NCBI GenBank assembly: GCA_016932555.1
Contig: JAFGCQ010000004.1
Span: 990 to 64,989 of the forward strand
Direction: 5' to 3'
Length of the DNA stretch: 64,000 nt
Source of the DNA: Candidatus Zambryskiibacteriota bacterium
GTDB lineage: Bacteria > Patescibacteriota > Minisyncoccia > Phycocordibacterales > WO2-35-19
The stretch's first letter is position 1. Each line of letters begins with the position of its first letter. Below are positions 23,434-61,705 of this stretch, one piece after another. Made by a program: the position numbers and the translations under genes. A model generated the notes under the pieces. The model was not told where the DNA came from. It searched no databases and saw nothing but the letters and a program-made list of their open reading frames with translations.

Positions 23434-23437
23434 ACTC

Positions 23438-23537
23438 TCGAATATTACGAATAAGATCGAATAATACGAATCCTATTTTTGCTATTAATTTGATTGTTCT
23501 TTATTTGTAGCATTCGATTAAATTTGTGGTTATTCGC
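23438..23537 (-). repeat. 100-nt intergenic element, copy A (between rplN and rplX)
   Basis: 99/100 identical to 33287-33386. Contains four CGAAT motifs about 9-10 nt apart. Confidence 0.9.
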
Positions 23538-23914
23538 TAGATGACTTCTGAAGCTAATGAAATAATGGCCTGATGGCCGGCCTCAGCAATTTCTCGAGGA
23601 ATAGGACCAAAGATTCTTCCTGCTCTTGGAGTAATTTCACCCTTCTTCTTATCTACTACAACTAATGCATTTTCATCAAATCGGATATAAGAACCATCTT
23701 TTCTGCGTAGTGGTGTCTTTTGGCGAATTACCATTCCTAATAGTACTGCTTTTTTCTTTATTTCTTTGCGAGGTTCAGCTTTTTGAACTGAAAATTTAAC
23801 CAGCTCGCCAATTCTAGCATAGCGCTTTTTAGAAGAACCTAATATTTTAAAAACCCGGCCGATTTTAGCACCTGAATTATCTGCTATTTTAACTATAGAA
23901 TTTGGCTGAATCAT
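23537..23914 (-). CDS. rplN: 50S ribosomal protein L14
   Basis: MIQ...ADNSGAK start; full-length match to the family. Confidence 0.9.
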   Translation of the reverse strand: MIQPNSIVKIADNSGAKIGRVFKILGSSKKRYARIGELVKFSVQKAEPRKEIKKKAVLLGMVIRQKTPLRRKDGSYIRFDENALVVVDKKKGEITPRAGRIFGPIPREIAEAGHQAIISLASEVI

Positions 23915-23940
23915 AATTTATGTTTTTACGATTTTACTAT

Positions 23941-24231
23941 TTACTTAATTATTATAAAATGCTTATCTTTTGATATTGGTTTAACTTCCTTGATTTCAAC
24001 TTTATCACCTATTTTCTTAGTATTACCAATATCATGGGTTTTATATTTTTTATTTACTTTGTAATATTTTCTGTATTTTTTATGTTTAACAAATCTTATT
24101 ACTGAAACCGTGCAAGTATCTTTCATTTTGTCTGATACTACAATACCCTTCAAGATTCTCGATCTGATTCCATTTTTCTTCTCTTCTGTTTTTTCTATTT
24201 TTTTATCCATAATTCTTAATTCATTATTCAT
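23941..24231 (-). CDS. rpsQ: 30S ribosomal protein S17 (N-terminal extension)
   Basis: LKGIVVSDKMKDT...V..HKKY core. Confidence 0.85.
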   Translation of the reverse strand: MNNELRIMDKKIEKTEEKKNGIRSRILKGIVVSDKMKDTCTVSVIRFVKHKKYRKYYKVNKKYKTHDIGNTKKIGDKVEIKEVKPISKDKHFIIIK

Positions 24232-24406
24232 TATTTATCTTCGTCAAAATTCTAGCAATTTCTTTTTTCAGATTTTTCTGCCTTTTAACATCCTTACTTT
24301 TACTACCAGCTATACCAAATCTTATATCACGCAAGGCTAGCTTTTTTTCATCAAGCTCTTTTTGTAAATCTTGTGTGATATTTTTTTTTGGTTTTTCTTT
24401 TTTCAT
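24224..24406 (-). CDS. rpmC: 50S ribosomal protein L29
   Basis: 60 aa; helical Lys-rich; positioned between L16 and S17. Confidence 0.8.
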   Translation of the reverse strand: MKKEKPKKNITQDLQKELDEKKLALRDIRFGIAGSKSKDVKRQKNLKKEIARILTKINNE

Positions 24407-24417
24407 AATCGTCTTTT

Positions 24418-24434
24418 ATTCGTATTATTCGATC
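24418..24434 (+). repeat. 17-nt fragment of the CGAAT element, inverted orientation (rplP-rpmC spacer)
   Basis: ATTCGTATTATTCGATC is the exact reverse complement of 23455-23471. Confidence 0.7.
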
Positions 24435-24444
24435 ATATTCACAG

Positions 24445-24864
24445 TTATTGGCGAGTAACTATTTTAGTTTTTACTGGCATTTTACAGCCACCTTTACGCA
24501 AAGATTCTCGGGCAATAATTTCCGAAGTGCTTTCAGCTTCAAAAAGAACTTGACCCGGTAAAATTCTTACTTGGTAACCTTCAATATCTCCTTTACCTTT
24601 ACCCATTTTCACTTCCGCCGGCTTTTTAGTAAAAGGCATATCTGGGAAAATACGGACCCAAACTCGGCCAGTTTTACCAAGATTTCGGCTAATAATTTTT
24701 CTAGCAGCTTCTATTTGATTAGAAGTAACTCGACCGGCAGAAATAGCTTTAAGACCATGTGAACCGAAAGAAATTTCTATCCCGCGAGTAGCTGGGCTTA
24801 TCTTGTTTGGATTTTTGCGCATTATATGCCATTTCCGATATTTAACTTTTTTAGGGAATAACAT
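24445..24864 (-). CDS. rplP: 50S ribosomal protein L16
   Basis: MLFPKKVKYRK start; family-typical sequence. Confidence 0.9.
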   Translation of the reverse strand: MLFPKKVKYRKWHIMRKNPNKISPATRGIEISFGSHGLKAISAGRVTSNQIEAARKIISRNLGKTGRVWVRIFPDMPFTKKPAEVKMGKGKGDIEGYQVRILPGQVLFEAESTSEIIARESLRKGGCKMPVKTKIVTRQ

Positions 24865-24895
24865 GATTTTAGGTTAATTGGTCAATTAAAATAAT

Positions 24896-25558
24896 TTATC
24901 CTTGCTTAGTAAAAATCTCACCCTTATAAATCCAAACCTTGATGCCAACTTTGCCGAGAGGCAATTTTGCTTCATAAAAAGCGTAATCAATGTCTGCCCG
25001 CAAAGTTTGCAAAGGAATTTGCCCAACCTTTTTACTCTCTACTCTAGCCATATTAGATCCTCCTAAGATACCAGAAAGAGTAATTTTCACACCTTTAACA
25101 TCACGGTTAGCAAAAGCTTTATCAATAATTGTTTTCATCACCCTACGAAAAGGCATCCTTTTTTCTAATCCTTCAGCTACCATCTGGGCAGCAATCATTG
25201 CACTAGACTCGGGTGACTTAACTTCTTTAATATCAATTTTTAATTCTTCGTTTAGATTAAATTTTTTGCGTTTTATAAAAACTAATATATCGCTTCTAAG
25301 TTTCTCCAACCCTTCACCATTGCGTCCAATAATAAAGCCGGGTCTAGATGATTCAATAATTATTCTAAAAGTTTTCACGCTTCTTTCTATTTCAATAGAA
25401 TTAACAAAAGATCCTTTCAAGCGTTTATATAAATATTCGTAAATTAAAACATCGCTTTTTAAATTTTCTTTATATTTATCTTTTACATCAAACCAGCGAG
25501 ACTTCCAATCACGAATGATGCCCAATCTATGAGAATATGGATGTACGGTGTGAGTCAT
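24896..25558 (-). CDS. rpsC: 30S ribosomal protein S3
   Basis: KH domain and S3 C-terminal domain sequence. Confidence 0.9.
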   Translation of the reverse strand: MTHTVHPYSHRLGIIRDWKSRWFDVKDKYKENLKSDVLIYEYLYKRLKGSFVNSIEIERSVKTFRIIIESSRPGFIIGRNGEGLEKLRSDILVFIKRKKFNLNEELKIDIKEVKSPESSAMIAAQMVAEGLEKRMPFRRVMKTIIDKAFANRDVKGVKITLSGILGGSNMARVESKKVGQIPLQTLRADIDYAFYEAKLPLGKVGIKVWIYKGEIFTKQG

Positions 25559-31806: not shown

Positions 31807-32142
31807 CTATAGTTTTTTATCTTTTAACATTTTCGCCACTGCTATCAGTAAAATTTTTTCATCATCGTCAAATTGGCTATATCTCTCTTTGATTGTTTCT
31901 TCAATAGCAGTTGAGAGAGAAATAGGTTCATCACTCATGAGTTCTGTCAGATCACCCTCAATAATATTAATCTTATTGCAATTACCAAGTTGGCAAAATT
32001 TTTCAGGACGAAGATTAAATTGCCCCTCAGGATTACCGTAAGGACAATTTGAACCATCTACCCAACACTTTTGCTGTTCGTTACACTTGAGTTGTTGAAC
32101 AAAACTCAAAGACAATAAATGTTCCTTAATACTTGATTCCAT
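31807..32142 (-). CDS. Cys-rich hypothetical protein
   Basis: Five Cys within residues 20-55; no recognised family. Confidence 0.35.
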   Translation of the reverse strand: MESSIKEHLLSLSFVQQLKCNEQQKCWVDGSNCPYGNPEGQFNLRPEKFCQLGNCNKINIIEGDLTELMSDEPISLSTAIEETIKERYSQFDDDEKILLIAVAKMLKDKKL

Positions 32143-32208
32143 GAGAAACCTCCAATGAAAATAAAGATCAAAATTCCTTTTAAATTTTTAGCATACTACC
32201 CAAAAAAC

Positions 32209-32240
32209 AAAAAGACTTGTAGAAAAGTCTTTTTGTTTTG
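32209..32240 (-). terminator. Bidirectional terminator after rplK
   Basis: AAAAGACTT/AAGTCTTTT stem flanked by A-runs and T-runs. Confidence 0.65.
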
Positions 32241-32258
32241 TAATTTATTTTTGTTTTT

Positions 32259-32306
32259 CCCCTCTCCTGCATCTAGAGGAGGGCAACTTGTGAAGCAAGT
32301 GGGAGG
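32259..32306 (+). repeat. GC-rich hairpin-plus-tail element (family B) abutting the rplK stop codon
   Basis: CCCCTCTCC..AGAGGAGGG hairpin plus ...GTGAAGCAAGTGGGAGG tail. Same architecture as 58407-58451. Confidence 0.6.
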
Positions 32307-32726
32307 TTATCGCACTTCCACTCCCATACTCCTACATTGTCCAGCAATGATCTCTATGGCAGCATCGATGTTATTAGCGTTAAGATCTGGCATTTTAATT
32401 TGAGCTATTTCTTCAAGTTGTTTTCTGGTGATAGTGCCCACCTTTTGAGCTGGCGTTTTGCCAGCACCCTTTTCCAGACCTAAAGCTTTTTTAATAAGAC
32501 TTGAAGCTGGTGGAGTTTTTAATATGAAATCAAAAGTTCGATCTTCATAAACATTAAGTTCAGCCGGAACTAGACCTTCCATATTTTTGGTAGCTTCATT
32601 AAATTTAGTGATAAATTCACCGATATTGATACCAGCCGGACCCAAAGCTGTACCCACCGGCGGAGCCGGCGTAGCTTTTTTTGCTTCTATTACCAACTTT
32701 ATTTTTTTAACTACTTTCTTTGCCAT
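32307..32726 (-). CDS. rplK: 50S ribosomal protein L11
   Basis: [16 protein letters not shown] motif. Confidence 0.9.
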
Positions 32727-32736
32727 AATTGTTAAT

Positions 32737-33282
32737 TTATATCTTCTTTACCTGCAAAAAGTCAAGCTCTACTGGAGTTTCGCGACCAAACATTGGGACC
32801 AAAACTTTAACCTTACCTTGTTCTTCATTAACTTCACCCACCTTGCCTTCCAAATCTTTAAAGGGTCCATCTATAATCCTTACTGATTCATCAAGAGAAA
32901 GATCAATATTATGTTTTACTTTATCAGAATGCATCCTGTTAAATAGCTCCTCTATTTCTTTTTTATCCAAAGGTACCGGAAAAACTCCAGCGCCAACAAA
33001 TCCTGTTACTCGAGGAGTGTTTCGAACCACATACCAAGAATCATCAGTTACAATCATATCTACCAGTACATAACCTGGATAAATTTTTTCTTCCTCTTCA
33101 ACTCGTTTATTACCCTTTATCTTGATCTTTTTTTCAGTTGGGACAATAACATCAAAAATTTTATCCTCCATACCCAAAGATTCTATGCGCTGTTTTAGAT
33201 TTCTCATTACAGCATTTTCATAACCAGAATAAGTATGAACAGCATACCAATTTCTTTCGCTTCTTATTTGTTGTTTGCTCAT
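32737..33282 (-). CDS. nusG: Transcription antitermination factor NusG
   Basis: [17 protein letters not shown] domain and C-terminal KOW. Confidence 0.9.
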
Positions 33283-33286
33283 ATGA

Positions 33287-33386
33287 TCGAATATTACGAA
33301 TAAGATCGAATGATACGAATCCTATTTTTGCTATTAATTTGATTGTTCTTTATTTGTAGCATTCGATTAAATTTGTGGTTATTCGC
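33287..33386 (-). repeat. 100-nt intergenic element, copy B (between secE and nusG)
   Basis: 99/100 identical to 23438-23537, same orientation relative to the operon. Confidence 0.9.
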
Positions 33387-33389
33387 AGA

Positions 33390-33566
33390 TTAAATAAAGA
33401 AACTAAGAATTTTAGAAAATATAAAATCAAAAAAACCTAAAAATATAGACACCAAAATAGATATTACAACCACTACTATTGAAAAAATTATAGACTGTTT
33501 TCTAGTAGGCCAGTTAACATGAGAAAGTTCGTTTTTAGTTTCTTTTATGTAATTTGTTAAAGACAT
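33390..33566 (-). CDS. secE: Preprotein translocase subunit SecE (58 aa, below the ORF-track cutoff)
   Basis: Hand translation MSLTNYIKETKNELSHVNWPTRKQ plus one TM helix; directly upstream of nusG. Confidence 0.7.
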   Translation of the reverse strand: MSLTNYIKETKNELSHVNWPTRKQSIIFSIVVVVISILVSIFLGFFDFIFSKILSFFI

Positions 33567-33595
33567 AGTATAAATTTCTAATTTTAATTAATTCT

Positions 33596-33620
33596 ATCAA
33601 AAAACCCCGTCTGGGGTTGT
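33596..33620 (-). terminator. Terminator after 33707-34519
   Basis: AACCCC/GGGGTT stem followed by TTTTTT on the minus strand. Confidence 0.6.
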
Positions 33621-33706
33621 TTGATTATACTTCAATAATACACAAACCACAATTCTTGTCAAATTTATATTCATGACATTTGATCTCATTCACGGTTATT
33701 CGAGAG

Positions 33707-34519
33707 TTATTTGATTTCGTAAGTAATAGTTATATTAGAAGTAATCTTGGTTTCTCCGGCAGGCAAATCAGCCGCCATCGGTACCGCAGATACAGCCATC
33801 TCTTCCACTCCACCACCTCGGCCATAAGCTTCGTAAGGATAAACTCCATTTTCATTATAGTACATAATTTTACCTAAGCGCACTCCAAGTTGGTTAGCTA
33901 GAATTTTAGCTTTTTCTTTGGCTTTTTTGATAGCCTCTTCTCTAGCTTCTGCGATATATTTATCCCTATTATCAACAGTGAATTCCATTCCGCTTATATT
34001 TGAAACACCAATATTGCCGATTTTAGTTACTAAATTGCCAGCTTTATCAGTTTCTTTAATTTTAACAGTAATAGTTTGATTAACTTCATAGCCCACTAAA
34101 ACTTGTTTGCTAGTTGGGCAAGGGTAGGTAACGCAAGCTACTCTATTCCATTCATATTTAGGATAAACATTATAACCGATAGTTTTGATATCTTTATCTT
34201 CTATCCCCTCTTCCTCAAGAATAGACAGGGCTTTATTAATTTTTTGCTCAGCTTTCTCTTGAGCACCAGCTACAGTATCACTAATCTCAACTACAGAAAA
34301 ATTAAATGTAGCGATATCAGGAATAGCATAAGCTTCACCCTCACCAGAAACTGAAATTGTAGATTGAGGATAAAATTCATCACCGATAGTTGGTATAGTC
34401 TTAAGTTCACTTATAACTTTAGTTAAGAGAAAAGCCGAAAGCAACATTAAAGAAATAGCTGCCCACTTAGAGATTCTTTTAAATCCTTCTTCACCTAAAA
34501 ACTGATTAAACATATTCAT
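33707..34519 (-). CDS. SIMPL (DUF541) domain protein with signal anchor
   Basis: ISVSGEGEAYAIPDIATFNFSV start of the SIMPL domain. Confidence 0.7.
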   Translation of the reverse strand: MNMFNQFLGEEGFKRISKWAAISLMLLSAFLLTKVISELKTIPTIGDEFYPQSTISVSGEGEAYAIPDIATFNFSVVEISDTVAGAQEKAEQKINKALSILEEEGIEDKDIKTIGYNVYPKYEWNRVACVTYPCPTSKQVLVGYEVNQTITVKIKETDKAGNLVTKIGNIGVSNISGMEFTVDNRDKYIAEAREEAIKKAKEKAKILANQLGVRLGKIMYYNENGVYPYEAYGRGGGVEEMAVSAVPMAADLPAGETKITSNITITYEIK

Positions 34520-34544: not shown

Positions 34545-35363
34545 TTATAGATTATAGTAGCATAAATCTGATAAATTTTGAAATAAACAAGCTATAGTTA
34601 GAGGTCCGATACCTCCCGGTACTGGTGAAATTGCTTTTAATTTATTAACTAATTCAGTAAAATCAACATCGCCCACTATTCTATCTTTCATCTTGTTTAT
34701 TCCTACATCAATAACTACCTGTTCTGGATTTATAAATTTCTCCGTTATAATACCTGCTTTACCGACAGCTGAAATTAATAAGTCGCATTTTTTTGCAATT
34801 TTTTCCGGATTTTTGGTATTGATGTCACAGCGAAAAACTTTTGCACCTCTTTTTTCAAGCTCATCAGCTATAGGTTTACCAGCTAAAATTGACTGGCCTA
34901 TAACTGCCGCTTTTTTGTCTTTAATTTCAAAATTATAAAAATTTAACAACGATATAACTGCACGTGCTGTGGCTGGAATAATTCCACTTCCTGATACTAG
35001 CCCGTCTACATCTTTTCTTTTATCAATCAAATTTATTATCTTTTCTGAATCAAAACCTTTAGACCTGCCTGCGCAAGCAGGTAATGGTAACTGTACAATA
35101 ATTCCATCTACGCTTTTATCTCCATTTAATTTTTTAATCTCTTCTATTAATTCTTTCTCAGTAATATCTTCGTTAAAATTCTTTAACAAAACTTCTACTC
35201 CGATCTCCTCTCCAAATTTGCGCTTGTTTTTAATATAAATACTTGAATCCGGCCGATCTCCAACTTGCACAATGGCTAAACAAGGCTTGCAGCCCAATTT
35301 TTTTACCCTCCTTATTAAATCTTCTTTAATTTTCTCCTTAACAGGAGCCCCATATAAAATCAT
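34545..35363 (-). CDS. folD: Bifunctional methylene-THF dehydrogenase/methenyl-THF cyclohydrolase
   Basis: VQLPLP and GGIGPLT motifs; carries the palindrome insert ACAGRSKG after LPLP. Confidence 0.9.
   Translation of the reverse strand: MILYGAPVKEKIKEDLIRRVKKLGCKPCLAIVQVGDRPDSSIYIKNKRKFGEEIGVEVLLKNFNEDITEKELIEEIKKLNGDKSVDGIIVQLPLPACAGRSKGFDSEKIINLIDKRKDVDGLVSGSGIIPATARAVISLLNFYNFEIKDKKAAVIGQSILAGKPIADELEKRGAKVFRCDINTKNPEKIAKKCDLLISAVGKAGIITEKFINPEQVVIDVGINKMKDRIVGDVDFTELVNKLKAISPVPGGIGPLTIACLFQNLSDLCYYNL
35063..35082. repeat. 20-nt near-palindrome ACCTGCCTGCGCAAGCAGGT (one mismatch), in-frame in folD
   Basis: Variant of the 1432/61388 palindrome. Confidence 0.85.
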
Positions 35364-43346: not shown

Positions 43347-43366
43347 GCTACAAATTTCCACAAATT

Positions 43367-43385
43367 AGATCGAATGATACGAATA
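43367..43385 (-). repeat. Fragment of the CGAAT element in the rpsJ-rplC spacer
   Basis: AGATCGAATGATACGAAT is an 18-nt exact match to 33303-33320. Further CGAAT/ATTCG motifs run to about 43430. Confidence 0.7.
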
Positions 43386-43460
43386 AAGACTTTTTTATTC
43401 GCGCGAATAAAAAATGCCGCTCGGCTCCGAATAAATTAACAAATATTCCGTTAAATTGCA

Positions 43461-49588: not shown

Positions 49589-50692
49589 ATGAGGTACGAG
49601 ATAAAAATAGAAAAATTGCCAAAATCTGAGGTAAAACTGGAAATATCACTTCCAGCCGAATTTTTAGATGAAGCTAGAAAAAAAGCAATAAGGAAATTTT
49701 GCGCTGAATTGGAGGTACCGGGATTCAGAAAGGGTAATGTGCCGGAAAATATCGCCATCGAAAAAGTCGGTGAAAACAAAATATTACAGGAAGCAGTGAA
49801 TATCCTCCTACAGGAACATTTTCCAAAAGTGATAGAACAGGAAAAACTTGATATAATTGGTCGACCGAATATTTCTATAACTAAGCTAGGACTCGGCAGC
49901 CCAACAGAATTTAAGGTTGAGTTCGCTACTCTGCCCGTTTTCAAATTGCCAGATTATAAAGAGATAGCAAAAAAATTAAGAATTGCGAATAACGAATCAA
50001 GAAAAGAAAAAAAGATAGAAGTCACTGATAAAGAGGTTGACGATGTACTTTTACAAATCCGGAAAAATAAGGCTCATTTTGATTGGCATAAAAGTCATCC
50101 AGAAGAGAAATCCGCCCAAGGCGGATCCGCCTTGGACGGAGGCCACAATCATCCAGAAATAAGAGATGAGGATCTGCCGCCACTGGATGATAAATTAGCA
50201 GAGGAAGCTGGTAATTTCAAAAATTTGGATGAACTTAAGGCCAAAATCAAAGAAAACATAAAATTCGAAAAAGAAAATAAAGAAACCGAAAAATTAAGAG
50301 CCGAAATTATGGAAGAATTATTAAAAGCGACCAAAATAGAAGTTCCAGATATATTAATAGAGAGCGAAATCGATAAAGCTTTAGCCCAGATGAAAGGTGA
50401 TATTGGAAGAATAGGTGTTAAATTTGAAGATTATCTAAAGCAGGTCAAAAAAACTGAAGAGGATTTGAAGAAAGAATTAAGTAGTAGCTCAGAAAAAAAA
50501 GCCGGCATCCAGCTTATCTTTAATAAAATTGCCGAAGCTGAAAAACTTGAGCCTAACAAAGAAATTTTAGAAAATGAAATTAAACACCTGATGGAGCATT
50601 ACCCCGACGCCTCCGAACAAAACGCCCGCATTTATGTTACCACCATTCTCCTAAACCAAGAAGTATTAAAACTTTTAGAAAATCAAAAATAA
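49589..50692 (+). CDS. tig: Trigger factor, apparently lacking the PPIase domain
   Basis: N-terminal ribosome-binding domain (GFRKGNVP) joined directly to the C-terminal arm domain through a short linker. Confidence 0.8.
50111..50140. repeat. 30-nt near-perfect GC-rich palindrome, in-frame in tig
   Basis: TCCGCCCAAGGCGGATCCGCCTTGGACGGA. The central 18 nt are perfectly palindromic; one mismatch in the outer arms. Confidence 0.85.
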
Positions 50693-50696
50693 AAAT

Positions 50697-51290
50697 ATGA
50701 AAAACGAAATCAAAAATCAAATATTAGTACCGACAGTGATTGAAAAGACCCACCAGGGCGAAAGAGCTTTTGATATTTACTCAAGACTTCTTAAAGACCG
50801 CATAATCTTCCTGGGCGGGCCAATCGAAGATACTATGGCCAACCTTATTATTGCCCAGTTGCTTTTCTTGCAGTCTGAAGACTCCAAGAAAGATATTTCC
50901 ATTTACATCAACTCCCCCGGCGGCGCCGTTACTTCAACTTTAGCTATTGTGGATACTATTAAATATATTAAACCGGATGTAGCCACTTACTGTGTGGGCA
51001 TTGCTGCAAGCGGCGCCGCTTTGGTGCTTTCGGCTGGTTCTAAAGGCAAAAGATATATTCTCAAAAATGCTGAGGTGATGATACATCAGCCCATCGGTGG
51101 CGCTGAAGGTCAGGCTACTGATATTGCTATCACTGCTAAACACATTTTAAAAACCAAAGAAAACTTAAATAAAATGCTGGCTGAAAATACCGCCCAGCCG
51201 CTTAAAAAAATCGAACAGGACGCCGAGCGTGATTACTTTATGTCAGCCGAGGAGGCAAAAAAATATGGCATCGTGGACAAGATCTTATAA
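50697..51290 (+). CDS. clpP: ATP-dependent Clp protease proteolytic subunit
   Basis: Full-length family match with the GxASG serine site (GIAASGAA) and MIHQP. Confidence 0.9.
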
Positions 51291-53095: not shown

Positions 53096-54535
53096 CTAGA
53101 GTAAATCATAAGATTTTTCCTCCTTCGGATATACTGCATCAACATTCAAATAATCTTTAATGCGCTGGACTAAGAAAAGTGAAGATTTCGGCTCGCCCAT
53201 TATAACAAATACGCGCTTAAGTTTACTCTTTTTCTCCCTCTCCTTCGCAAAGAGAGAGCTACGTGTAGTGAGGGATGAGGTCGCTACCTTTTCTACAAAC
53301 TCCAGCAAATGCTCTGAGTCTTTGTGTGATGAATAACCAGTGATATTTTCTATGGTAGCCCTGACTTTCACTGCTTCTTTTTTCTTATTACCACCAGTGT
53401 TAATAAAAACTTTTTTTACTCCATCCTGTAGTGCTCTGCCCAAAGACCCGATAGATTGATAACCCACTAGAATAATTGTCGCTTTAGGATCAGGCAAATA
53501 ATTTGCCTCATGATTTACAATTCTACCCCCTTCCGACATGCCTGAACCGGCCATGATTATTTTAGTTCCTTCAGTTTTTTCTATTTCTTTGGATTCTTCA
53601 AAATTTTTAATAATTTTTAACCCAGGAAAATTAAAAATGTTATCACCTTGTTTAATTTCTTTTTGGATTAAATCTTTGAAATCAGAGGAATATTTTTGAT
53701 AAATAGCAGTTACCTTTTCAGCTAAAGGTGAGTCCAAAAATACCGGCACTTTGGCAATTTTTCCACCCTCTATCATCTCATTAAGTTCATAGAGTAAAAC
53801 TTGAGTTCTTTCTATGGAAAAAGCCGGTATAATAATCGCACCGCCTTTCTTTATACCTTCTTCTAGAGCTCTTTTAAATTTTTTTCTTCTGTCTTTTTTG
53901 TTTTCATGATTCCTATCGCCATAGACACTTTCCATAACAAGATAATCAACTTCTTTGGGAAATTCAGTATCAGGTAAAAGTAGTGATGGTGAATTACCTA
54001 AATCTCCAGTGAATGTTATTTTTGTTTTTGAAATCGTAACACTCAAAATAGCCGAACCTAAAATATGCCCGGCATTTTGCATTTCTAAAAAACAATCATC
54101 AAAAAGTTTTATCTTCTCTCCATATTTTTTACCTTCCCAAAAAGCAAAACTTCTTTCAATATCATTTTCATTAAAAAGTTCTTGTTTAGGGTATTTTGAA
54201 CGCATAACTTTAAGCGCATCTTGAAGCATGAGCTTCGCTAATTCCATTGTTTCTTTGGTAGAAATTATTTTGCCTTTGAAACCTTCCTTCACTAATTTTG
54301 GAATTCTACCAATATGGTCCATATGGGCATGGGTGATAAGTAAGAAATTTATACCTATCGGATTGTATTTAAAGGGTTTAAAATTTTTATCCTCGGCATA
54401 TTTTGTTCCTTGAAAAAGACCGCAATCAATCAGAATTTTTCTTTGATTGCATTCTAGCATTATATTAGCACCAGTAGTAGAACCTACGCCGCCAAAAAAT
54501 CTAAGTTTTTGGTCATCATTCATATTTTTCTTCAA
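53096..54535 (-). CDS. MBL-fold beta-CASP family RNA-metabolising hydrolase
   Basis: HAHMDHIGRIP motif; beta-CASP layout; C-terminal ...IMGEP. Confidence 0.8.
   Translation of the reverse strand: MKKNMNDDQKLRFFGGVGSTTGANIMLECNQRKILIDCGLFQGTKYAEDKNFKPFKYNPIGINFLLITHAHMDHIGRIPKLVKEGFKGKIISTKETMELAKLMLQDALKVMRSKYPKQELFNENDIERSFAFWEGKKYGEKIKLFDDCFLEMQNAGHILGSAILSVTISKTKITFTGDLGNSPSLLLPDTEFPKEVDYLVMESVYGDRNHENKKDRRKKFKRALEEGIKKGGAIIIPAFSIERTQVLLYELNEMIEGGKIAKVPVFLDSPLAEKVTAIYQKYSSDFKDLIQKEIKQGDNIFNFPGLKIIKNFEESKEIEKTEGTKIIMAGSGMSEGGRIVNHEANYLPDPKATIILVGYQSIGSLGRALQDGVKKVFINTGGNKKKEAVKVRATIENITGYSSHKDSEHLLEFVEKVATSSLTTRSSLFAKEREKKSKLKRVFVIMGEPKSSLFLVQRIKDYLNVDAVYPKEEKSYDLL
53236..53280 (+). repeat. 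Family B GC-rich element, degenerate copy, in-frame inside the beta-CASP gene
   Basis: CCCTCTCC..GAGAGAGCTACGTGTAGTGAGGGATGAGG aligns with 58407-58451. Confidence 0.6.
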
Positions 54536-55838: not shown

Positions 55839-56633
55839 CTATCTTGTCAAAACTTCTATTCCATTCTTTGTAACCGCTACTGTATGCTCAAAATGAGCAG
55901 AAAGAGATTTATCACGAGTAATAAAGGTATAGCCATCAGAGAGACGCTTGATTTCACGACTACCTAAAGAAAACATCGGCTCAATAGCAATAACTAGCCC
56001 TTCTCTAAGTTCCGGCCCTTCGCCCCTCTCGGCTCGATTGGGTACATACGGTTCTTCATGGACACTATAACCTACCCCGTGACCTGACAAGCCTTCTATT
56101 ATGCCCAAATTGTATTTCATAGCCACTTGCATAATAGCCGCCCCAATATCACCTATATGGCCACCGATTTGCATAGTGTTAATGCCTTTTTCTAAAGCTT
56201 CATAAGTCGCTCTAATGAGAGTCGCGGCATCATCGCTAATTTTACCAACTGGTACAGTAATGGCTGCGTCAGTAATCATGGGTCTTACTTGTGGTGAACC
56301 AGTCAAACTATAAGTAAAACCCATATCCAAAGAAACGATATCTCCTTCAAATAAAATCCGATTGCCGTCATGATTTGGAATACCGTGAACAATTTCTTCA
56401 TTTATGGAAACACAAAGCGAGGCCGGGTAGGGTTTTGAAGCATCATCAGATTGATAGCCAAAAAAAGAGCCGACGCCACCCGCTTCATCGATAAGTTTTT
56501 CGGCGTAATCATTAAGCTCTTGAGTTTTAACCCCTGCTTTAACTTTTTGGGCCACTTTTTTTAAAATCTTCGCGTGAATCTTACCTCCTTCCCGCATCAC
56601 TGCTATTTCTTCTTCTGTTTTGTATTTGATCAT
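55839..56633 (-). CDS. map: Methionine aminopeptidase type I
   Basis: Family-typical metal-ligand segments (D..D..H..E..E). Confidence 0.9.
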   Translation of the reverse strand: MIKYKTEEEIAVMREGGKIHAKILKKVAQKVKAGVKTQELNDYAEKLIDEAGGVGSFFGYQSDDASKPYPASLCVSINEEIVHGIPNHDGNRILFEGDIVSLDMGFTYSLTGSPQVRPMITDAAITVPVGKISDDAATLIRATYEALEKGINTMQIGGHIGDIGAAIMQVAMKYNLGIIEGLSGHGVGYSVHEEPYVPNRAERGEGPELREGLVIAIEPMFSLGSREIKRLSDGYTFITRDKSLSAHFEHTVAVTKNGIEVLTR

Positions 56634-57220
56634 AATCCAATTTTGCTTATTATCTCTTTATGAACTTCATCGATTGTTTGTTCGCCGTTTATTTCTATAA
56701 ATTTATAATAGTGATTGTTTTTGAGATATTCCACAGTTGGTAAAACTTTTTCTTTAAACCAATCTAGCCTGTTTTTTATATCTTCTTCATTGTCATCAGT
56801 CCTGCCTCTATCTTTCATTAGCTTGGTAACCCATTCATTTGAAGCATTTATCGAAATAACCATTGGGTTCTCTCTTTCATAAAATTTTAAAGCATCACTC
56901 AGTATATACGCTTCACCAAGTTTACGAGGTGTACCATCAAAGAAAATAGTCACATCTGGAGAAAGCTCTTCAACCAAGCGCTTAGTCCAAATGTAGATAG
57001 GCATAAACTCAGGAACTAATTCACCCTGATCTAAAATTTTTTTGACTCTTTGGGATGTGAAAGATTGGGTTTGGGTAAGTTTTCTAAATCCTTCCCCAGT
57101 TTCTATATAGATAATTTTTTGCTCAGGATATTTTTTCTTAATTTCTTCCTGTAGGAGCTTAGCTTGGGTACCCTTACCGCAACCAGATGGCCCTAAAAAT
57201 ATGAAAGTTTGCGGTTGCAT
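56630..57220 (-). CDS. adk: Adenylate kinase
   Basis: P-loop GPSGCGKGTQ. ATG at 57220 preferred over the ORF-track start at 57247. Confidence 0.85.
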   Translation of the reverse strand: MQPQTFIFLGPSGCGKGTQAKLLQEEIKKKYPEQKIIYIETGEGFRKLTQTQSFTSQRVKKILDQGELVPEFMPIYIWTKRLVEELSPDVTIFFDGTPRKLGEAYILSDALKFYERENPMVISINASNEWVTKLMKDRGRTDDNEEDIKNRLDWFKEKVLPTVEYLKNNHYYKFIEINGEQTIDEVHKEIISKIGL

Positions 57221-57240
57221 GAAATAAGTATAACATAAAT

Positions 57241-57285
57241 CCCCCACTCGGGACTAGTCCTCGACCTCCCCTTGATCAGGGGAGG
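57241..57285 (-). repeat. Family B-related GC-rich element (hairpin CCTCCCCT-TGATC-AGGGGAGG)
   Basis: Shares both ends with 57657-57702; direct repeat flanking the DUF559 gene. Confidence 0.6.
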
Positions 57286-57305
57286 CAATGCGCGATAATT
57301 AGGAA

Positions 57306-57656
57306 ATGACAAGAGTTCATAATATCCGCAAACTTTCAGATCGCAGGAAAGAATTACGAAAAAACCAAACAAAAACCGAAGAAAAACTCTGGTGGTATTT
57401 GAAAGATAAGAGGCTGGGAATTAAATTCAGAAGACAGCACAGTATAGGAGGATATATTTTAGATTTTATATGCAAAGAAAAGAAATTGATTATAGAAATT
57501 GATGGTAGAGTACATTTGAAAAAAGATAATAAAGAATACGATAAAGTTAGAGACAAATATTTTGAAGAGTTAAATTATAAAGTTCTGAGATTTACGAATG
57601 ATGAGGTTGAAAATGGGGTTAAAGAGATTATTGATGTTATAAAGCGGTATCTTTAA
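57306..57656 (+). CDS. DUF559 (Vsr-like) endonuclease-domain protein
   Basis: TEEKLWWYLK...FRRQHSIGGYILDF...IEIDG..H...D..RD..L...GY.VLRF pattern. Confidence 0.8.
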   Translation: MTRVHNIRKLSDRRKELRKNQTKTEEKLWWYLKDKRLGIKFRRQHSIGGYILDFICKEKKLIIEIDGRVHLKKDNKEYDKVRDKYFEELNYKVLRFTNDEVENGVKEIIDVIKRYL

Positions 57657-57702
57657 CCCCCACCCCTCAATTCGTGTAGCCCTTCTCTTGATCAGGGGAG
57701 GG
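57657..57702 (-). repeat. Family B GC-rich element, inverted copy
   Basis: Its reverse complement aligns along the whole length of 58407-58451 (about 80 percent by eye). Confidence 0.75.
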
Positions 57703-57724
57703 AAAACCAAAATCATACAAAAAG

Positions 57725-57748
57725 AAAACCGCCATTCAGCGGTTTTCG
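57725..57748. terminator. Bidirectional terminator between convergent genes
   Basis: AAAACCGC-CATTCA-GCGGTTTT with T-runs on both strands. Confidence 0.6.
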
Positions 57749-57770
57749 GTTGAAAATCATTGAAGAGCGA

Positions 57771-58322
57771 TTATATCAAAATCCTCCCATTATACTCATG
57801 GAACCCGATTTCTCCACTGGTAGCCGTGAAAAAAATATGCTCCATTCCAGCAAAATTTTCGAATCCGCCCCCGAGAAAAATAGTGTTTTCATACTTAAGA
57901 AGGTTTTTATCATAGTTTCCTACACGAGTATCATTATAAAAACCGTGTGTAGCTAAACCTCGTCCACCATGGAATTCACGTTGTTTGTAGGCGTAATTAA
58001 GCGCCATTTTCAAAAAACTGATCACTTCCTTAGGATAACATCCAGAATAAGACATCCACCACACGGCCATCCATCTTCCTCTGGGTCTGAACCTATAAAA
58101 GATAGTGGTTGTACCGGCGGAAAAATCTGAAAGCGGTGTCACACAATAGTGATCTACCACTTTGTAGTTACCGGATACAAAAGTGATTCTTTTGTATCCG
58201 CTAGATTCTATGACTTTAACAGAATTCTTTTTGTTTCCAGCATATCCGTCAAGCATAGCATCGAAGAATACTTTTTCTGCTTTTTGAATGATTTTCTTTC
58301 TCTGTTTGGACTCTAGTTCCAC
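57771..58322 (-). CDS. Hypothetical protein, DUF5680-like (tentative)
   Basis: Pattern ...AMLDGYAGN...W.MSYSG....EVISFLK.AL...FHGGRG recalls DUF5680. From memory only. Confidence 0.4.
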   Translation of the reverse strand: MELESKQRKKIIQKAEKVFFDAMLDGYAGNKKNSVKVIESSGYKRITFVSGNYKVVDHYCVTPLSDFSAGTTTIFYRFRPRGRWMAVWWMSYSGCYPKEVISFLKMALNYAYKQREFHGGRGLATHGFYNDTRVGNYDKNLLKYENTIFLGGGFENFAGMEHIFFTATSGEIGFHEYNGRILI

Positions 58323-58406
58323 TGTTGGCTCCTTTCACCCATTAGGTCTGACTCAGGTTATACAACAATATAAAAATTAAAGCAAGAATAAAAAATACCG
58401 CGCGTT

Positions 58407-58451
58407 CCCTCCCCCGTCCAGGGGGAGGGCTACACGAAGTGAGGGGTGGGG
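58407..58451 (+). repeat. Family B GC-rich element abutting the secY stop codon
   Basis: CCCTCCCC-CGTCC-AGGGGGAGGG hairpin plus CTACACGAAGTGAGGGGTGGGG tail. Confidence 0.75.
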
Positions 58452-58452
58452 A

Positions 58453-59724
58453 TTAATATTCTCTTGCAGAGATTTGAGCATCAACTTTTTTAACGAGATC
58501 AAGAACCACTGAAACTACGATAAGAAGTCCTGTACCGCCTATAGCCACTGCGCTGATACCAGTAGCCGCCCTTACTATTAAAGGCAAAACAGCAATTAAT
58601 CCCAAGAAAATAGCGCCAATCATGGTTAAACGGGAAAGGATTTTGGCTATATATGAGGAAGTCGAGGAACCGGGTCGAACTCCCGGAATAAAAGCACCGC
58701 CTCTCTGTAAATTTTTGGAAAGATTCTCCGGATCAAAAGTAATAGCTGTGTAGAAATAAGTAAAAACAAAAACTAATAAGAAGTAGGCAATGCCATAAAA
58801 AATCTGGTTAGAAAGCAAAGCAAGTAGAAATTCAGAAATCTTTTGGATTATAGTATTGTCTACATTAGCTAAAAAGCGGATTATCATTTGAGGAAAAAGT
58901 AATATGGAAAGAGCAAAAATTATAGGAATCACCCCAGCTTGATTAACTCTTAAAGGTAAATAAGTGGAAACTCCACCATACATTTTATTACCTCTAACTT
59001 GTTTAGCGTAAGTTATCGGTATGGGTCTTTCTGCTTCAGTAATAACTACTACACCCCAAATCACTGCTATGGCAGCCGCCAGAAAGCCAATATACATCGG
59101 CAATTGAGATGGATCAAAAGCAAATAAAAGCTGGCTAGTCGCACTGGGTAAAATAGCAACAATGCCGGCAAAAATGATAAGCGAGACTCCGTTACCAATA
59201 CCAAATTCAGATACTAACTCACCAAGCCACATAAGAAGCATTGAACCGGCAGCAATTACTATAAGATTTGTTAGCAATTCAAAACCAGCAAGTTTACTTA
59301 AAACATTCTGATTTTGAAGAAGAATAATAAAAGCATAACCTTGCATTAAAGCTAGAGGCACAGTCAAAAATCTTGAATATTGAGAAAATTTTCTGCGTCC
59401 TAATTCACCCTCTTCTTGATACATAGCCTTGAGTTTAGGAAACATAACAGTCATAAGCTGCATAATAATAGAAGCGGTAATATATGGCGACACACCGAGC
59501 ATAATAATTGAAAGATTAGACAAACCACCACCCGAAAAGATATTTAAAAGTCCAAAGAAATCATTATCAGACATAAACTGCTCTAATTTAAAAGTATCAA
59601 TACCGGGAATTGGGATAGAGGCCATCAAACGGAAGAGAGCCAACATTACAAGGGTAAAAATTATTCTCTTTCTTAAATTTTTATCCCCTAAGACTAATTT
59701 TATTTTGTGAATAAAATTTTGCAT
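58453..59724 (-). CDS. secY: Preprotein translocase subunit SecY
   Basis: Ten-TM SecY sequence; follows rplO. Confidence 0.95.
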   Translation of the reverse strand: MQNFIHKIKLVLGDKNLRKRIIFTLVMLALFRLMASIPIPGIDTFKLEQFMSDNDFFGLLNIFSGGGLSNLSIIMLGVSPYITASIIMQLMTVMFPKLKAMYQEEGELGRRKFSQYSRFLTVPLALMQGYAFIILLQNQNVLSKLAGFELLTNLIVIAAGSMLLMWLGELVSEFGIGNGVSLIIFAGIVAILPSATSQLLFAFDPSQLPMYIGFLAAAIAVIWGVVVITEAERPIPITYAKQVRGNKMYGGVSTYLPLRVNQAGVIPIIFALSILLFPQMIIRFLANVDNTIIQKISEFLLALLSNQIFYGIAYFLLVFVFTYFYTAITFDPENLSKNLQRGGAFIPGVRPGSSTSSYIAKILSRLTMIGAIFLGLIAVLPLIVRAATGISAVAIGGTGLLIVVSVVLDLVKKVDAQISAREY

Positions 59725-61153: not shown

Positions 61154-61705
61154 TTAAACTGTTTTCTTACCTTGTTTTCTTCTTATAATTTCATTCTCAT
61201 AACGAAAACCCTTGCCTTTATAAGGTTCCGGTTTTTTTAAGCTTCTTACTTTGGCAGTAAAAGCTCCGACTAACTCTTTATCAAAACCAAATATAGTAAT
61301 GAGATTCTTTTCAGCTTTTACTTCCAAGCCGTCAGGGATTAGAACTTCTACCGGATGGGAAAAACCCAGAGAAAGAATCAACTTATTGCCTGCCTGCGCA
61401 GGCAGGCCATTAACTTGGGATTTAAAACCTACGCCTTCTAATACTAATTTTTTTTCAAAACCATCATTAACTCCTTTTATCATGTTTTTTATATGAGAGG
61501 CATAAGTACCCCATAGAGCCTTAGTTTGATTATTTTCTTTGGGTATAGAAAGATTGATATGATTTTCTTCAATTTTAATTACTACATCATCACGAAATTT
61601 TCTTTCCAATAAACCTTTTGGACCTTTCACAAAAAAAACGTTATCTTTTAAGGAGACTTCTGTACCTGGTAGTATCTTTATTTCTTTTTTACCTATTCTT
61701 GACAT
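61154..61705 (-). CDS. rplF: 50S ribosomal protein L6
   Basis: MSRIGKK start; two L6 repeats; carries the insert GLPAQAG before [12 protein letters not shown]. Confidence 0.9.
61388..61407. repeat. 20-nt perfect palindrome GCCTGCCTGCGCAGGCAGGC, in-frame in rplF
   Basis: Self-complementary; same core as 1432-1449. Confidence 0.9.

Follow-up and report, generated by a model that had tools for sequence, protein, structure and literature searches.

Repeats of the BoxC/PIT/TM class have been known in Escherichia coli since the 1990s and are present in hundreds of genomes. Canonical REPs are imperfect palindromes, 20-40 nt long, with GTAG or GGAG immediately before them at the 5' foot, and those of E. 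coli stabilise the upstream mRNA; QMITE2 of Coxiella is a MITE found chiefly in 3' UTRs. The triplex motif of E. coli, TMECO, has the consensus CCCTCNCCC N3-6 GGGNGAGGG N3 GGGNGAGGG (PMC4666352). TMECO formed a stable triplex in vitro and the TM loci were more rearranged among E. coli strains (PMC4666352). Holder et al. (2015), in the most thorough study of these repeats, saw neither mobility genes in the vicinity of E. coli TMECOs nor a triplex in vivo, and stated that a mobility function had never been found nearby (PMC4666352); RNA does not form triplexes of the purine-motif type, and promoter or terminator activity of PIT/BoxC elements was not seen (PMC4666352). The Vsr/DUF559 clade of nucleases contains a proven homing endonuclease (PMC3424549; PMC3239194), and the Caulobacter DUF559 protein VsrA drove an SOS response in methyltransferase-mutant cells, VSP repair being hypothesised (PMC12907096). 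A survey of the openly accessible literature on DUF559, ycjD, CPR repeats and intrastrand triplexes revealed no paper that ties DUF559 to repeats of this class.

We studied a repeat, family B, in a stretch of 64,000 nt from Candidatus Zambryskiibacteriota (GCA_016932555.1, JAFGCQ010000004.1, positions 990 to 64,989 of the forward strand), hereafter the window, and in related CPR DNA.

Five copies and their three-block architecture

A covariance model (R1) was built from seven copies, exclusively of other genomes, and run on the window with filters off. Its top five matches were the five loci listed in the initial annotation, here named A to E (E 2e-22 to 5e-4); the rest either had E >0.1 or corresponded to opposite-strand readings of the A-E hairpins. 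All five sequences were present at the coordinates claimed for them, to within 1-4 nt. Chance was excluded on the following grounds: a 25-nt tail pattern with up to 3 mismatches gave two matches in the window vs none in 100 shuffles; A and B formed the longest inverted repeat of the window (52 nt, 85% complementary); and a scan of the 64 kb for C/T-armed hairpins returned four loci only, all among the five, B being missed (two stem mismatches). In Rfam searches five tRNAs alone reached the gathering score in the window, with no match to family B, and a permissive search (E up to 5) over 57150-58550 gave nothing meaningful.

Copy A (58404..58456, core 58407-58451, plus strand; R1 65.4 bits, E 2.3e-22) presented the hairpin CCCTCCCCC-GTCCA-GGGGGAGGG, loop 2 CTA-CAC GAA GTG-A and the third block GGGGTGGGG, and was located 1 nt from the secY stop TAA (58453-58455, minus strand). 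Copy B (57653..57705, minus strand; 50.6 bits, E 7.8e-17) forms with A the best inverted repeat of the window. Its tail end lies 0-1 nt past the stop codon (TAA) of a DUF559 gene; the two C.A mismatches of its hairpin on the element strand are G.T on the DUF559 sense strand. Copy C (57237..57289, minus strand; 27.5 bits, E 4.1e-8) belonged to a sister subtype, with GGAC TA GTCC as the mini-hairpin of loop 2. Its hairpin end is positioned 20 nt upstream of the DUF559 ATG, with an inner flank, CAATGCGCGATAATT, common to other units (see below). Copy D (32257..32311, plus strand; 16.5 bits, E 5.4e-4), a divergent solo copy also of a sister subtype (loop 2 mini-hairpin ACTTG TGAAG CAAGT), lies 0 nt past the rplK stop TAA. 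Copy E (53233..53285, plus strand; 39.7 bits, E 1e-12) is a decayed copy that lies, as first reported, within the beta-CASP gene (53096-54535, minus strand), where it makes a clean insertion of 48 nt (16 codons) that keeps the reading frame and encodes the peptide TSSLTTRSSLFAKERE; the insertion is missing from a 70%-identical orthologue (L048). The initial annotation placed two copies next to a stop codon; the proximity was right but the number was three, i.e., A, B and D.

Each copy of family B consists of three blocks: a pyrimidine arm (CCCTCyCC), then its complement, the purine arm (GGrGAGGG), and lastly a third block, or tail (GGGTGrGG), that mirrors the purine arm and so makes the element a triplex motif. 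The mirror repeat had escaped the initial annotation. This is the three-block mirror architecture of the class II purine motif. The TMECO consensus as published, with short loops (1-6 nt), did not fit, loop 2 of family B being 13-15 nt and its arms 8 nt; relaxed TMECO-like short-loop copies, which have arms of 8 nt and 1-6 nt in loop 2, were present in the CPR loci L005 (6509-6542), L017, L027 and L045. Manual alignment of copy A gave 8 allowed triads (G.G, A.A or T.A type). Across copies, the variable position of the purine arm changed together with the tail position that mirrors it (A/A 21, A/G 1, G/A 3, G/G 17; Fisher p = 9e-8, a statistic that ignores shared descent), and tail conservation is partly selected for, because the loci were gathered by exact tail match. 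When a 50-copy alignment was fitted to the model, 97.9% of the cells were standard pairs and 6 pairs were changed on both sides, a combination reached by 0 of 500 shuffles, shared descent being ignored here too; all three pairs of the loop-2 mini-hairpin were altered on both sides across copies. A generic triplex-motif finder was too strict, missing most window copies and the ycjD TMECO, and its counts were taken as a rough control. By its sequence features, family B is a BoxC/PIT/TM-class repeat in Patescibacteria, with a 13-nt self-pairing module (CTA-CAC GAA GTG-A) in place of the 3-nt loop 2.

Dispersal, gene ends and variable occupancy

True copies were found at 10 of the 13 genome loci and at all 19 metagenome loci that matched the tail, mostly from Zambryskibacteria. 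The hairpin was canonical in 17 of these 19, different in L023 and truncated in L025. About 50 distinct copies were counted in 288 kb of related CPR DNA, which bears out the earlier view of a dispersed, REP/MITE-like family; viral contigs yielded no family B copy. The preference for 3' gene ends suggested earlier also held when the distances to stops were tabulated: 16 intergenic copies had a stop 0-13 nt from the tail, and at the hairpin end no copy had one nearby (binomial p = 3e-5). Every one of the 16 stops facing tails was TAA, vs 68% in the background (p = 0.002), and in 52 of 56 copies the tail was followed by T. An obligatory TAA target was nonetheless rejected, because no TAA precedes the intragenic copies. 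At least 11 of the latter were credible, in frame and all tail-first on the sense strand, among them the peptide PHPSLRVDPLLxKER in a RluD-like gene of 6 genomes and a copy in FolD. The E. coli repeats are reported as always intergenic and without trend in strand or distance; the in-frame copies of family B and its tail-to-stop count of 16 vs 0 depart from that trait. Replication-strand and transcription-strand biases are separable only inside the window.

At four orthologous sites one genome carried the element and a relative did not: tig-clpP, the rplK 3' end, the FolD CDS and the beta-CASP CDS. The empty tig-clpP site of the window (50682..50697) has a 5-nt spacer, and its counterpart in the syntenic L008 (75% nt identity) holds two elements, the first one directly after the tig TAA. 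Copy D was absent from the rplK 3' end of a syntenic relative (L012), the beta-CASP alleles differed by exactly 48 nt, and the secY-adk spacer of the syntenic L050 was 138 nt long with no DUF559 unit. The forms observed were 48-nt solo copies, tail-outward pairs and inverted ends of DUF559 units, which can be arranged as a decay series: a gene unit with inverted ends, a gene-less pair (L008, L022, L027), a collapsed palindrome (L020, L005/L013) and a solo end. As for the marks of a MITE, the gene-less tail-outward pairs have the same ends as the DUF559 units, i.e., terminal inverted repeats, but neither a target-site duplication nor a known transposase accompanies them, DUF559 belonging to no known transposase family (Pfam, NCBIfam). 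The surroundings of 8 DUF559 units showed no target-site duplication, the inverted repeat extending 2-6 nt outward with unit-specific bases. To judge from these filled and empty sites, the family B element behaves as mobile DNA.

DUF559 genes framed by the repeat

Between the adk start and the secY stop lies an inserted unit of 1.2 kb (57241..58451) with the order C, DUF559, B, ORF183, A. C (left) and A (right, tail-outward) are the inverted ends of a secY-adk insertion that carries a DUF559 gene, and B is a solo copy within it. The framed gene (57306..57656, plus strand), with copy B at its stop, went unmentioned in the initial annotation; it codes for a 116-aa Vsr-like PD-(D/E)XK endonuclease (PF04480, E 9.5e-34) whose closest solved structure is 3hrl (E 6.5e-17). 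ORF183 (57771..58322, minus strand), DUF5680-like and convergent with DUF559, recurs as a partner in DUF559 units: a homologue beside a DUF559 gene was confirmed in L047, and three more are on contigs equal in length to those of DUF559 homologues, which suggests that these are the same contigs. Comparison of cargo between units found ORF183 and the L039 ORF to be unrelated. A promoter-like site (57272..57299, plus strand; TTGATC-16 nt-GATAAT) matches the consensus, with its putative -35 in the loop of the copy C hairpin and its -10 (57294-57299) in the conserved inner flank. The same geometry, TTGTTC-17 nt-C/GATAAT, was present 5' of DUF559 in L034, L036 and L038. The left end of the unit would then also supply the DUF559 promoter.

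All nine CPR DUF559 genes examined (the window, L047 and 7 more) had the element upstream in the same place. In the 7 additional loci the element ended 15-25 nt 5' of the start codon, always with a tail-outward element downstream, and L047 likewise carried a tail-outward copy at its distal end. These genes occupy differing housekeeping contexts, and their protein clades tracked the type of end module; roughly 50 other genes in the CPR DUF559 loci had 3 other full-length matches only. At the ruvB-yebC junction, L038 has the full unit and L020 exactly the left tail, one hairpin and the right tail. Outside CPR, the 3' end of E. coli ycjD is located within a TM-like hairpin loop, with a strict TMECO match 167 nt downstream, and a lineage-specific motif of this type was found at 200 nt or less from DUF559 genes of Synechocystis, Picosynechococcus, Neisseria, Deinococcus, Photobacterium and Sinorhizobium, six bacteria that stand for five phyla or proteobacterial classes. 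More than 90% of the copies lie away from any DUF559 gene, and the window has one such gene only. Variable contexts, filled or collapsed alleles and PF04480 membership were observed for the DUF559 gene; the product of a homing gene would in addition cleave the empty allele.

Propagation, alternatives and relation to known systems

We favor, with a probability of about 0.6, the reading of family B as a selfish mobile repeat of the BoxC/PIT/TM class, whose fold is recognised for propagation, whose cognate nuclease is DUF559 and which has no terminator role. The machinery of propagation would recognise the conserved fold, probably in DNA that has folded as a single strand. The Vsr-like DUF559 protein, as putative cognate enzyme, would make a nick or cut in the motif or close to it, and homing-like spread by way of repair or gene conversion would follow, or else spread through an unknown strand-transfer step; a PD-(D/E)XK nuclease alone cannot account for the insertion of 48 nt at a new site without flanking homology. 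Two influences would account for the distribution of copies, a bias of insertion and purifying selection, acting on a genome that is very compact: survivors would be those lying tail-first just after stops, or else only those in the two open reading frames of that strand, in tolerant protein loops. Effects on the host (16-residue peptide insertions, local instability) would be mostly neutral. A wider proposal is that DUF559 (YcjD-type) proteins are the missing cognate enzymes of BoxC/PIT/triplex repeats across bacteria, the gene and its two ends forming an unrecognised mobile or homing element and the solo motifs its non-autonomous offspring; this we hold tentatively, at somewhat less than even odds. 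If true, thousands of solo triplex motifs would relate to the DUF559 unit as REPs do to RAYTs, and in reduced CPR genomes the offspring would even enter coding sequences and the first bases past stops.

The initial annotation interpreted the hairpin as an RNA structure, a terminator or 3' stabiliser of the upstream mRNA selected at gene ends. Strong enrichment just past stops in one orientation to the gene agrees with this, as does the stability of the copy A hairpin (about -21 to -26 kcal/mol in folding models that consider Watson-Crick and wobble pairs only). However, a U-tract is absent after the hairpin on either strand, the sense-strand flank being A-rich; separate intrinsic terminators are located 3' of D (32204-32239) and of B (57724-57747); many copies sit in frame inside translated genes; and the conserved mirror third block is without a role in an RNA hairpin. 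A terminator scan of the regions with A, B, C and D called hairpin 1 of none of them, and its one match within a copy (57238-57255) covers the copy C tail only. Selection at the RNA level was rejected after the strand-asymmetric test of G.U tolerance, in which G.U-type mismatches numbered 9 vs 8 between strands, i.e., no signal. The family B element is not a terminator, and the suggested terminating or stabilising role as a whole is improbable. Selection at gene ends could also act on a DNA structure of benefit to the host, through replication pausing, nucleoid-protein binding or adaptive local instability. The covariation of the three blocks implies that the fold matters, and the in vitro triplex and rearranged TM loci of E. 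coli (PMC4666352) point the same way; we still consider such a benefit very improbable, given that orthologous sites differ in whether they hold the element, with no sign of its being required, that CDS copies and decayed copies (B, E) speak against a site-specific host function, and that the triplex was not detected in vivo (PMC4666352).

Other alternatives concern what moves the repeat. Family B might be a true REP that a RAYT (IS200-like Y1 HUH transposase) moves in trans, with DUF559 as an unrelated neighbour: the sense strand of the B subtype has GTAG and then directly the palindrome, the fixed orientation and lack of target duplication fit single-strand transposition, and two Y1_Tnp genes were found, one in L002/L033 (Pfam E 8e-10 and, against NCBIfam REP_Tyr_transpos, 45 bits), where a copy is 319 nt away, and a second in L003. 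These RAYT-like genes, however, fall under the NCBIfam cut-off (45 against 80 bits). The L033 gene is flanked on both sides by different hairpins (CAAGGAGAGTCCTTG) and that of L003 has just a terminator-like hairpin downstream, neither being family B, and a RAYT homologue is absent from the 64-kb window. With flanks of other hairpins, none in the window and a sub-cut-off score, RAYT was rejected as the mobilising enzyme; no cognate RAYT flanked by the same repeats was seen. GTAG is, besides, confined to the B subtype (sisters have TCGA, TCGG, TTTG, GCGC or other bases), many copies are intragenic and the mirror third block is foreign to REPs, all of which leaves the REP reading with a low probability. 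It is likewise unlikely, although less so, that the DUF559 tie is regulatory or passive, the protein being an ordinary repair nuclease of the very-short-patch type or a selfish passenger, its gene having taken over the motif as promoter, 5' leader and 3' end, and the repeats spreading otherwise, whether through some unknown transposase, through slippage of replication where the DNA folds or through gene conversion between copies. A promoter role leaves unexplained the downstream tail-outward copies that bound the unit in 8 of 8 CPR loci with both ends readable. Moreover, units with both ends move among unrelated housekeeping contexts, the filled and collapsed ruvB-yebC alleles act as one unit, and the association is found in at least 6 phyla or classes with co-varying arm sequences. 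This passive reading gains from the promoter-like -35/-10 at a fixed distance in the upstream element, from the SOS finding and VSP-repair hypothesis on Caulobacter VsrA (PMC12907096), from the lack of mobility genes near TMECOs according to Holder et al. (PMC4666352), and from the element at the RluD site, near invariant while its flanks diverged to about 65% identity, which fits gene conversion.

These results extend the BoxC/PIT/TM family to Patescibacteria, with a loop 2 able to carry a structured insert, and describe an element that behaves as mobile DNA and can lie in frame within essential-type genes. The association with DUF559 recurs (CPR, E. coli ycjD, cyanobacteria, Neisseria, Deinococcus, rhizobia), and this widespread domain gains a concrete candidate substrate, and the link may explain how the repeats spread. 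For annotation, the element accounts for the recurrent low-complexity peptides PHPSLRVDPLL.KER, PLIKGRE and NPPNP..KGG, as well as for spurious N-terminal extensions of CPR proteins.

Among the known systems, free-standing EDxHD homing endonucleases such as I-Bth0305I (PMC3239194; PMC2677866) are alike in being small nucleases of the Vsr/DUF559 clade at variable sites, and filled and empty alleles at the same junction are common to homing endonuclease genes and the DUF559 unit; the latter, unlike the I-Bth0305I type, is not in an intron or intein, and its structured-repeat flanks are also found as many gene-less copies. MITEs and their parent insertion sequences display a similar decay series, whereas family B is without target-site duplication or known parent transposase and its commonest form is a single 48-nt end, evidently inserting alone. 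Rickettsia palindromic elements are likewise selfish palindromes in a reduced genome that lie in frame in housekeeping genes of unrelated kinds, each insertion contributing a conserved peptide (PMC10969869), but they are about 100-150 bp long, unrelated in sequence, and have no stop-codon abutment, triplex-type third block or nuclease gene. The REP/RAYT system shares with family B a short GC-rich palindrome with adjacent conserved GTAG, which is scattered over the genome with most copies at the 3' ends of genes, and a DUF559 gene framed by family B is analogous to a single-copy RAYT framed by REPs. The differences are that the framed gene is PD-(D/E)XK Vsr-like, not HUH, that family B has an extra mirror block and CDS copies, and that the nearby RAYT-like genes carry other hairpins. 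For BoxC/PIT/TMECO of E. coli, Enterobacteria, Cyanobacteria and Neisseria (PMC4666352), the three blocks, CCCTCNCC(C), GG(G)NGAGGG and GGGNGAGG(G), are near-identical to those of family B. Both are G/C-rich islands, multi-copy and interspersed, with variable loops and conserved stems, frequent inverted pairs of two subtypes and a tie to local genome variability. Family B differs in its loop 2, a mini-hairpin of a length outside the 1-6 nt loops searched in PMC4666352, in its arms of 8 rather than 9 nt, and in its host, a Patescibacteria genome of 35% G+C. It differs also in some in-frame insertions, in a strict orientation to stop codons and in the pairs that bound DUF559 genes, which in CPR are arranged tail-outward, whereas the TMECO pairs of E. 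coli are arranged tail-to-tail.

Family B copies in the window and in related genomes

The five family B sequences recognised in the initial annotation, each a G/C-rich hairpin plus a tail, were present where it had placed them in the window, whose G+C content is 31-38%: A at 58404..58456 (+), B at 57653..57705 (-), C at 57237..57289 (-), D at 32257..32311 (+) and E at 53233..53285 (+). Oriented alike, they shared a layout that was also read in more than 50 further copies. It consists of TT, then hairpin 1, whose arms CCCTCyCC and GGrGAGGG enclose a loop of 3-6 nt, and then a middle module, the G-rich end GGGGTGrGG and T. The genes concerned are secY (58453-59724), adk (56630-57247), rplK (32307-32726) and a beta-CASP nuclease gene (53096-54535), all in the minus strand, and two genes between secY and adk: one in the plus strand encoding a 116-aa DUF559 protein (57306-57656; Pfam E 9.5e-34), and ORF183 in the minus strand (57771-58322; 183 aa, weak DUF5680 match). 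Formal scoring with a covariance model, built from seven copies all from other genomes and run with filters off, upheld the proposed family: the five best matches in the 64 kb were A (E-value 2e-22), B (8e-17), E (1e-12), C (4e-8) and D (5e-4). Copies A and B formed the longest inverted repeat of the whole window, the tail pattern had two matches in it as opposed to none in shuffled sequence, and a scan of the window for pyrimidine-armed hairpins gave matches at the family B loci only.

Loci retrieved from other genomes and metagenomes, among them relatives in the candidate-phylum Patescibacteria (CPR), bear L numbers. When one genome per species was searched for exact tail matches, 13 loci were obtained, 10 of them true copies with hairpin, mostly from Zambryskibacteria MAGs (six in one MAG), and a metagenome scan for the tail gave 19 loci, all of them true copies. 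With the covariance model, about 50 distinct copies were found in 288 kb of tail-matched and related loci. Family B copies were not found in the viral contigs scanned, and no Rfam family matched.

Other repeats were also seen in the window. The sequence ACTTGTCCTGAG(T/C)(T/G)GAG(C/T)CGAAGG, at 2463-2507 and 6021-6065 (76% identity), may be the "family A" of the initial annotation; a G/C-rich segment in the secY-adk spacer of L050 looks loosely similar to it. A 107-nt intergenic repeat (23431-23537 and 33280-33386, 96% identical, with a partial inverted copy at 43348-43389) lies directly upstream of two minus-strand gene starts, those of ORF 23212-23433 and nusG, and is probably a shared promoter or leader. 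An isolated G/C-rich hairpin without tail, CCCGCCCTTGACTGAAGGGTGGG at 3690-3712, matched the hairpin part of the covariance model only (10.4 bits, E 0.11).

Insertion sites, orientation and the terminator question

The element behaves as mobile DNA, its presence or absence differing at four orthologous sites. The REP/MITE-like nature first proposed for it is supported. The tig-clpP junction is a 5-nt spacer in the window and holds two elements, starting directly after the tig TAA, in the syntenic locus L008; after the rplK TAA, the window has copy D and L012 lacks it; FolD carries an element in L012 and none in the window; and copy E adds exactly 16 codons that the L048 beta-CASP orthologue lacks. 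Other G/C-rich palindromes stand at different positions in that orthologue and in several RluD-like genes. In the RluD-like pseudouridine synthase of six genomes the element occupied one fixed site, encoding PHPSLRVDPLLxKER, where the 48 nt were nearly invariant, including the stem, which lay outside the search pattern, and the flanking codons were about 65% identical; in L021 a different palindrome occupied the same site. This pattern suggests gene conversion between copies or repeated insertion at a hot spot.

Palindromes of other families were likewise seen within genes. A second G/C-rich family (GCCTGCCTGCGCAGGCAGGC) occurs at 35043-35085 and 61385-61427; its copy at about 35060 is in frame in FolD and encodes PACAGRS, residues missing from the L012 orthologue. 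In CPR relatives, further families are inserted in frame within housekeeping genes (L007 about 7015-7050, L010 7320-7357, L016 1457-1508 and the L048 beta-CASP gene), encoding peptides such as NPPNPLYFKGG, NPPNPPYIKGG and APALRVDPSYNKRG, and a second hot spot of insertion in the RluD-like gene is filled by different elements in different genomes.

The preference for gene 3' ends noted in the initial annotation was borne out, and it was polar: in 16 intergenic copies the tail end lay 0-13 nt from a stop codon (9/16 at 0-1 nt), and in none did the hairpin end lie near one (p = 3e-5). All 16 stops were TAA, vs 68% among 213 long ORFs (p = 0.002). Since a T directly followed the tail in 52/56 copies, the element may be taken to include the final A of an abutting TAA. 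All credible intragenic copies ran tail-first on the sense strand, in which direction two frames of the element are open and the third meets TAG in GTGTAG. In the window, copy B follows the plus-strand DUF559 gene, whereas A, D and E lie after or inside minus-strand genes; the orientation thus tracked the gene and not the replication strand in these few cases.

A role as terminating or mRNA-stabilising hairpin, also proposed initially, found no support. No T-run followed the family B hairpin on either strand, and a terminator scan of two regions called hairpin 1 of no copy; its only match inside a copy, 57238-57255, covered the tail of C alone. Two separate terminator-like hairpins lay downstream, one of D (32204-32239) and the other of B (57724-57747). 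Mismatches of the type read as G.U in RNA numbered 9 on one strand vs 8 on the other, i.e., without strand bias, and the folding energies of B, D and E were not exceptional relative to shuffles.

DUF559 units framed by inverted copies

Copy C lies 20 nt upstream of the window DUF559 start and copy A on the far side of ORF183, adjoining secY, both with the tail outward. The secY-adk spacer of L050 measures 138 nt and has no DUF559 block; 57241-58451 is therefore inserted DNA with inverted copies at its ends, and inside it B stands as an additional solo copy behind the DUF559 stop. DUF559 homologues from other CPR genomes, 55-80% identical, were found in differing housekeeping contexts: before tig (L034), between ruvB and yebC (L036, L038), adjoining trxB and ftsZ (L039), after pth (L042), after fba (L043), near gyrA (L045) and convergent with a DUF5680 gene (L047). 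According to the model, an opposite-strand element ended 15-25 nt before the start codon in 7/7 full loci, and a tail-outward element lay downstream in 7/7, directly or past one small cargo ORF; L047 showed matching upstream geometry at a contig end. Only three full-length model matches occurred among the approximately 50 other genes of those loci. In L034 and L036 the DUF559 stop, TGA, is inside the loop of the downstream hairpin, and in database proteins with N-terminal extensions the upstream hairpin is translated (e.g., PLIKGRE). A promoter-like TTGATC-16 nt-GATAAT spans the hairpin loop of C and the conserved inner flank, and a similar TTGTTC-17 nt-C/GATAAT recurs in L034, L036 and L038, both by consensus match only. 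The end-module types agreed with the DUF559 protein clades, and the closest solved structure to the window protein was 3hrl.

The ruvB-yebC junction carries a full unit in L038 and exactly a left tail, one hairpin and a right tail in L020, a form that is either a collapsed product or an empty target. A decay series is completed by tail-outward pairs without a gene (L008, L022, L027) and by forms with a single hairpin and two tails (L005/L013, L006, L018).

The DUF5680-like ORF183 travels with DUF559 in one confirmed convergent pair (L047) and in three more inferred from contigs of matching length; a syntenic relative has a gene of its type on its own between rny and the beta-CASP gene (L048/L050 10001-10498). 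L033 (560-1400, the L002 3020-3549 region) carries a 222-aa Y1 gene of IS200/RAYT-like type that scores under the NCBIfam cut-off for REP_Tyr_transpos; hairpins of its own (CAAGGAGAGTCCTTG) frame it, and a family B copy and a decayed remnant of DUF559 lie next to it.

We propose that recognition would depend on the fold of the single-stranded DNA, whether hairpin or triplex, that DUF559 may be a nuclease acting on it, and that the solo copies may be non-autonomous relatives of the unit. A nuclease alone does not explain how a 48-nt copy reaches a new site, and this mechanism does not account for the exact TAA abutment or for the unit-specific 2-6 nt by which the inverted repeat of DUF559 units is extended (AAAAGA/TCTTTT, AACGA/TCGTT, ATACA/TGTAT).

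Relation to BoxC, PIT and TMECO repeats

When the GGGTGrGG end is read antiparallel to the purine arm of the hairpin, every position has a G.G, A.A or T.A partner. The single variable stem position (T-A or C-G) covaried with its mirror partner in the tail (A-A 21, A-G 1, G-A 3, G-G 17; Fisher p = 9e-8, uncorrected for shared descent). Both helices, hairpin 1 and a mini-hairpin in loop 2, showed compensatory changes: in a 50-copy alignment, fitted to the model, standard pairs filled 97.9% of cells and six pairs had changed on both sides, values reached by 0/500 shuffles. This is the architecture of the repeats successively named BoxC, PIT elements and TM/TMECO motifs, for which the TMECO consensus is CCCTCNCCC N3-6 GGGNGAGGG N3 GGGNGAGGG (PMC4666352). 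They number 23 copies in E. coli MG1655 and are carried by more than 260 genomes; TMECO forms a class II purine-motif intrastrand triplex in vitro, none having been detected in vivo, and the repeats lack promoter or terminator activity and are associated with local genome rearrangement (PMC4666352).

DUF559 genes adjoin such motifs in other phyla as well. In E. coli K-12 the DUF559 gene ycjD (b1289; L051, NC_000913.3 1351030-1351830) has its TGA in the loop of CCCTCTCCC-TGAAAGA-GCGAGGGGG, a TM-like hairpin, followed by a decayed duplicate of the ycjD 3' end and, 167 nt downstream on the same strand, a strict TMECO/BoxC match; a 101-nt stretch of this region is repeated in E. coli genomes, with a median of 16 sites in each. 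In six other bacteria (L052-L057: Synechocystis, Picosynechococcus, Neisseria gonorrhoeae, Deinococcus, Photobacterium and Sinorhizobium meliloti) all DUF559 genes examined had lineage-specific motifs with three blocks, a hairpin plus mirror tail, in their flanks at up to about 200 nt, e.g., CCCCTCACCC-TAA-CCCTCTCCCC...GGGGAGAGGG in Sinorhizobium and CCCCC...GGGGG-TTA-GGGGG in Picosynechococcus. Over 50 kb of the Synechocystis plasmid, 3/3 matches of a strict but crude home-made finder, a rough control, were within 1.5 kb of the DUF559 gene. The neighbours of this gene are a truncated DUF1156 ORF on one side and an unnamed ORF on the other. The N. gonorrhoeae locus L058 holds dense arrays of alternating triplex-type motifs with a period of about 280 nt (23700-24420 and 31830-34110), one adjoining the DUF559 gene (about 24588-24905). 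Holder et al. never found mobility functions near TMECOs (PMC4666352), and the homing endonuclease I-Bth0305I belongs to the Vsr/DUF559 clade (PMC3424549; PMC3239194). Of the searchable papers, 25 mention DUF559 and 17 mention ycjD, and none of them connects either with BoxC/TM repeats; as far as it could be searched, the association is unreported, and it is directly testable.

Family B differs from TMECO in loop 2, which has 3 nt in TMECO and is CTA-CAC GAA GTG-A, with a 3-bp mini-hairpin, in family B. Sister subtypes carry other mini-hairpins at this place (e.g., GGCTGAAAGCC), copy C has GGACTAGTCC, copy D has ACTTG TGAAG CAAGT, and some DUF559 units have 18-nt hairpins there; CPR loci also hold short-loop copies fitting a relaxed TMECO-like pattern. 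The self-pairing insert would keep the ends of loop 2 adjacent and preserve the three-block fold. With its long structured loop 2, the element is a variant of an established class of repeats, found in a host group new for that class; its in-frame insertions and stop-codon abutment are likewise new behaviour.
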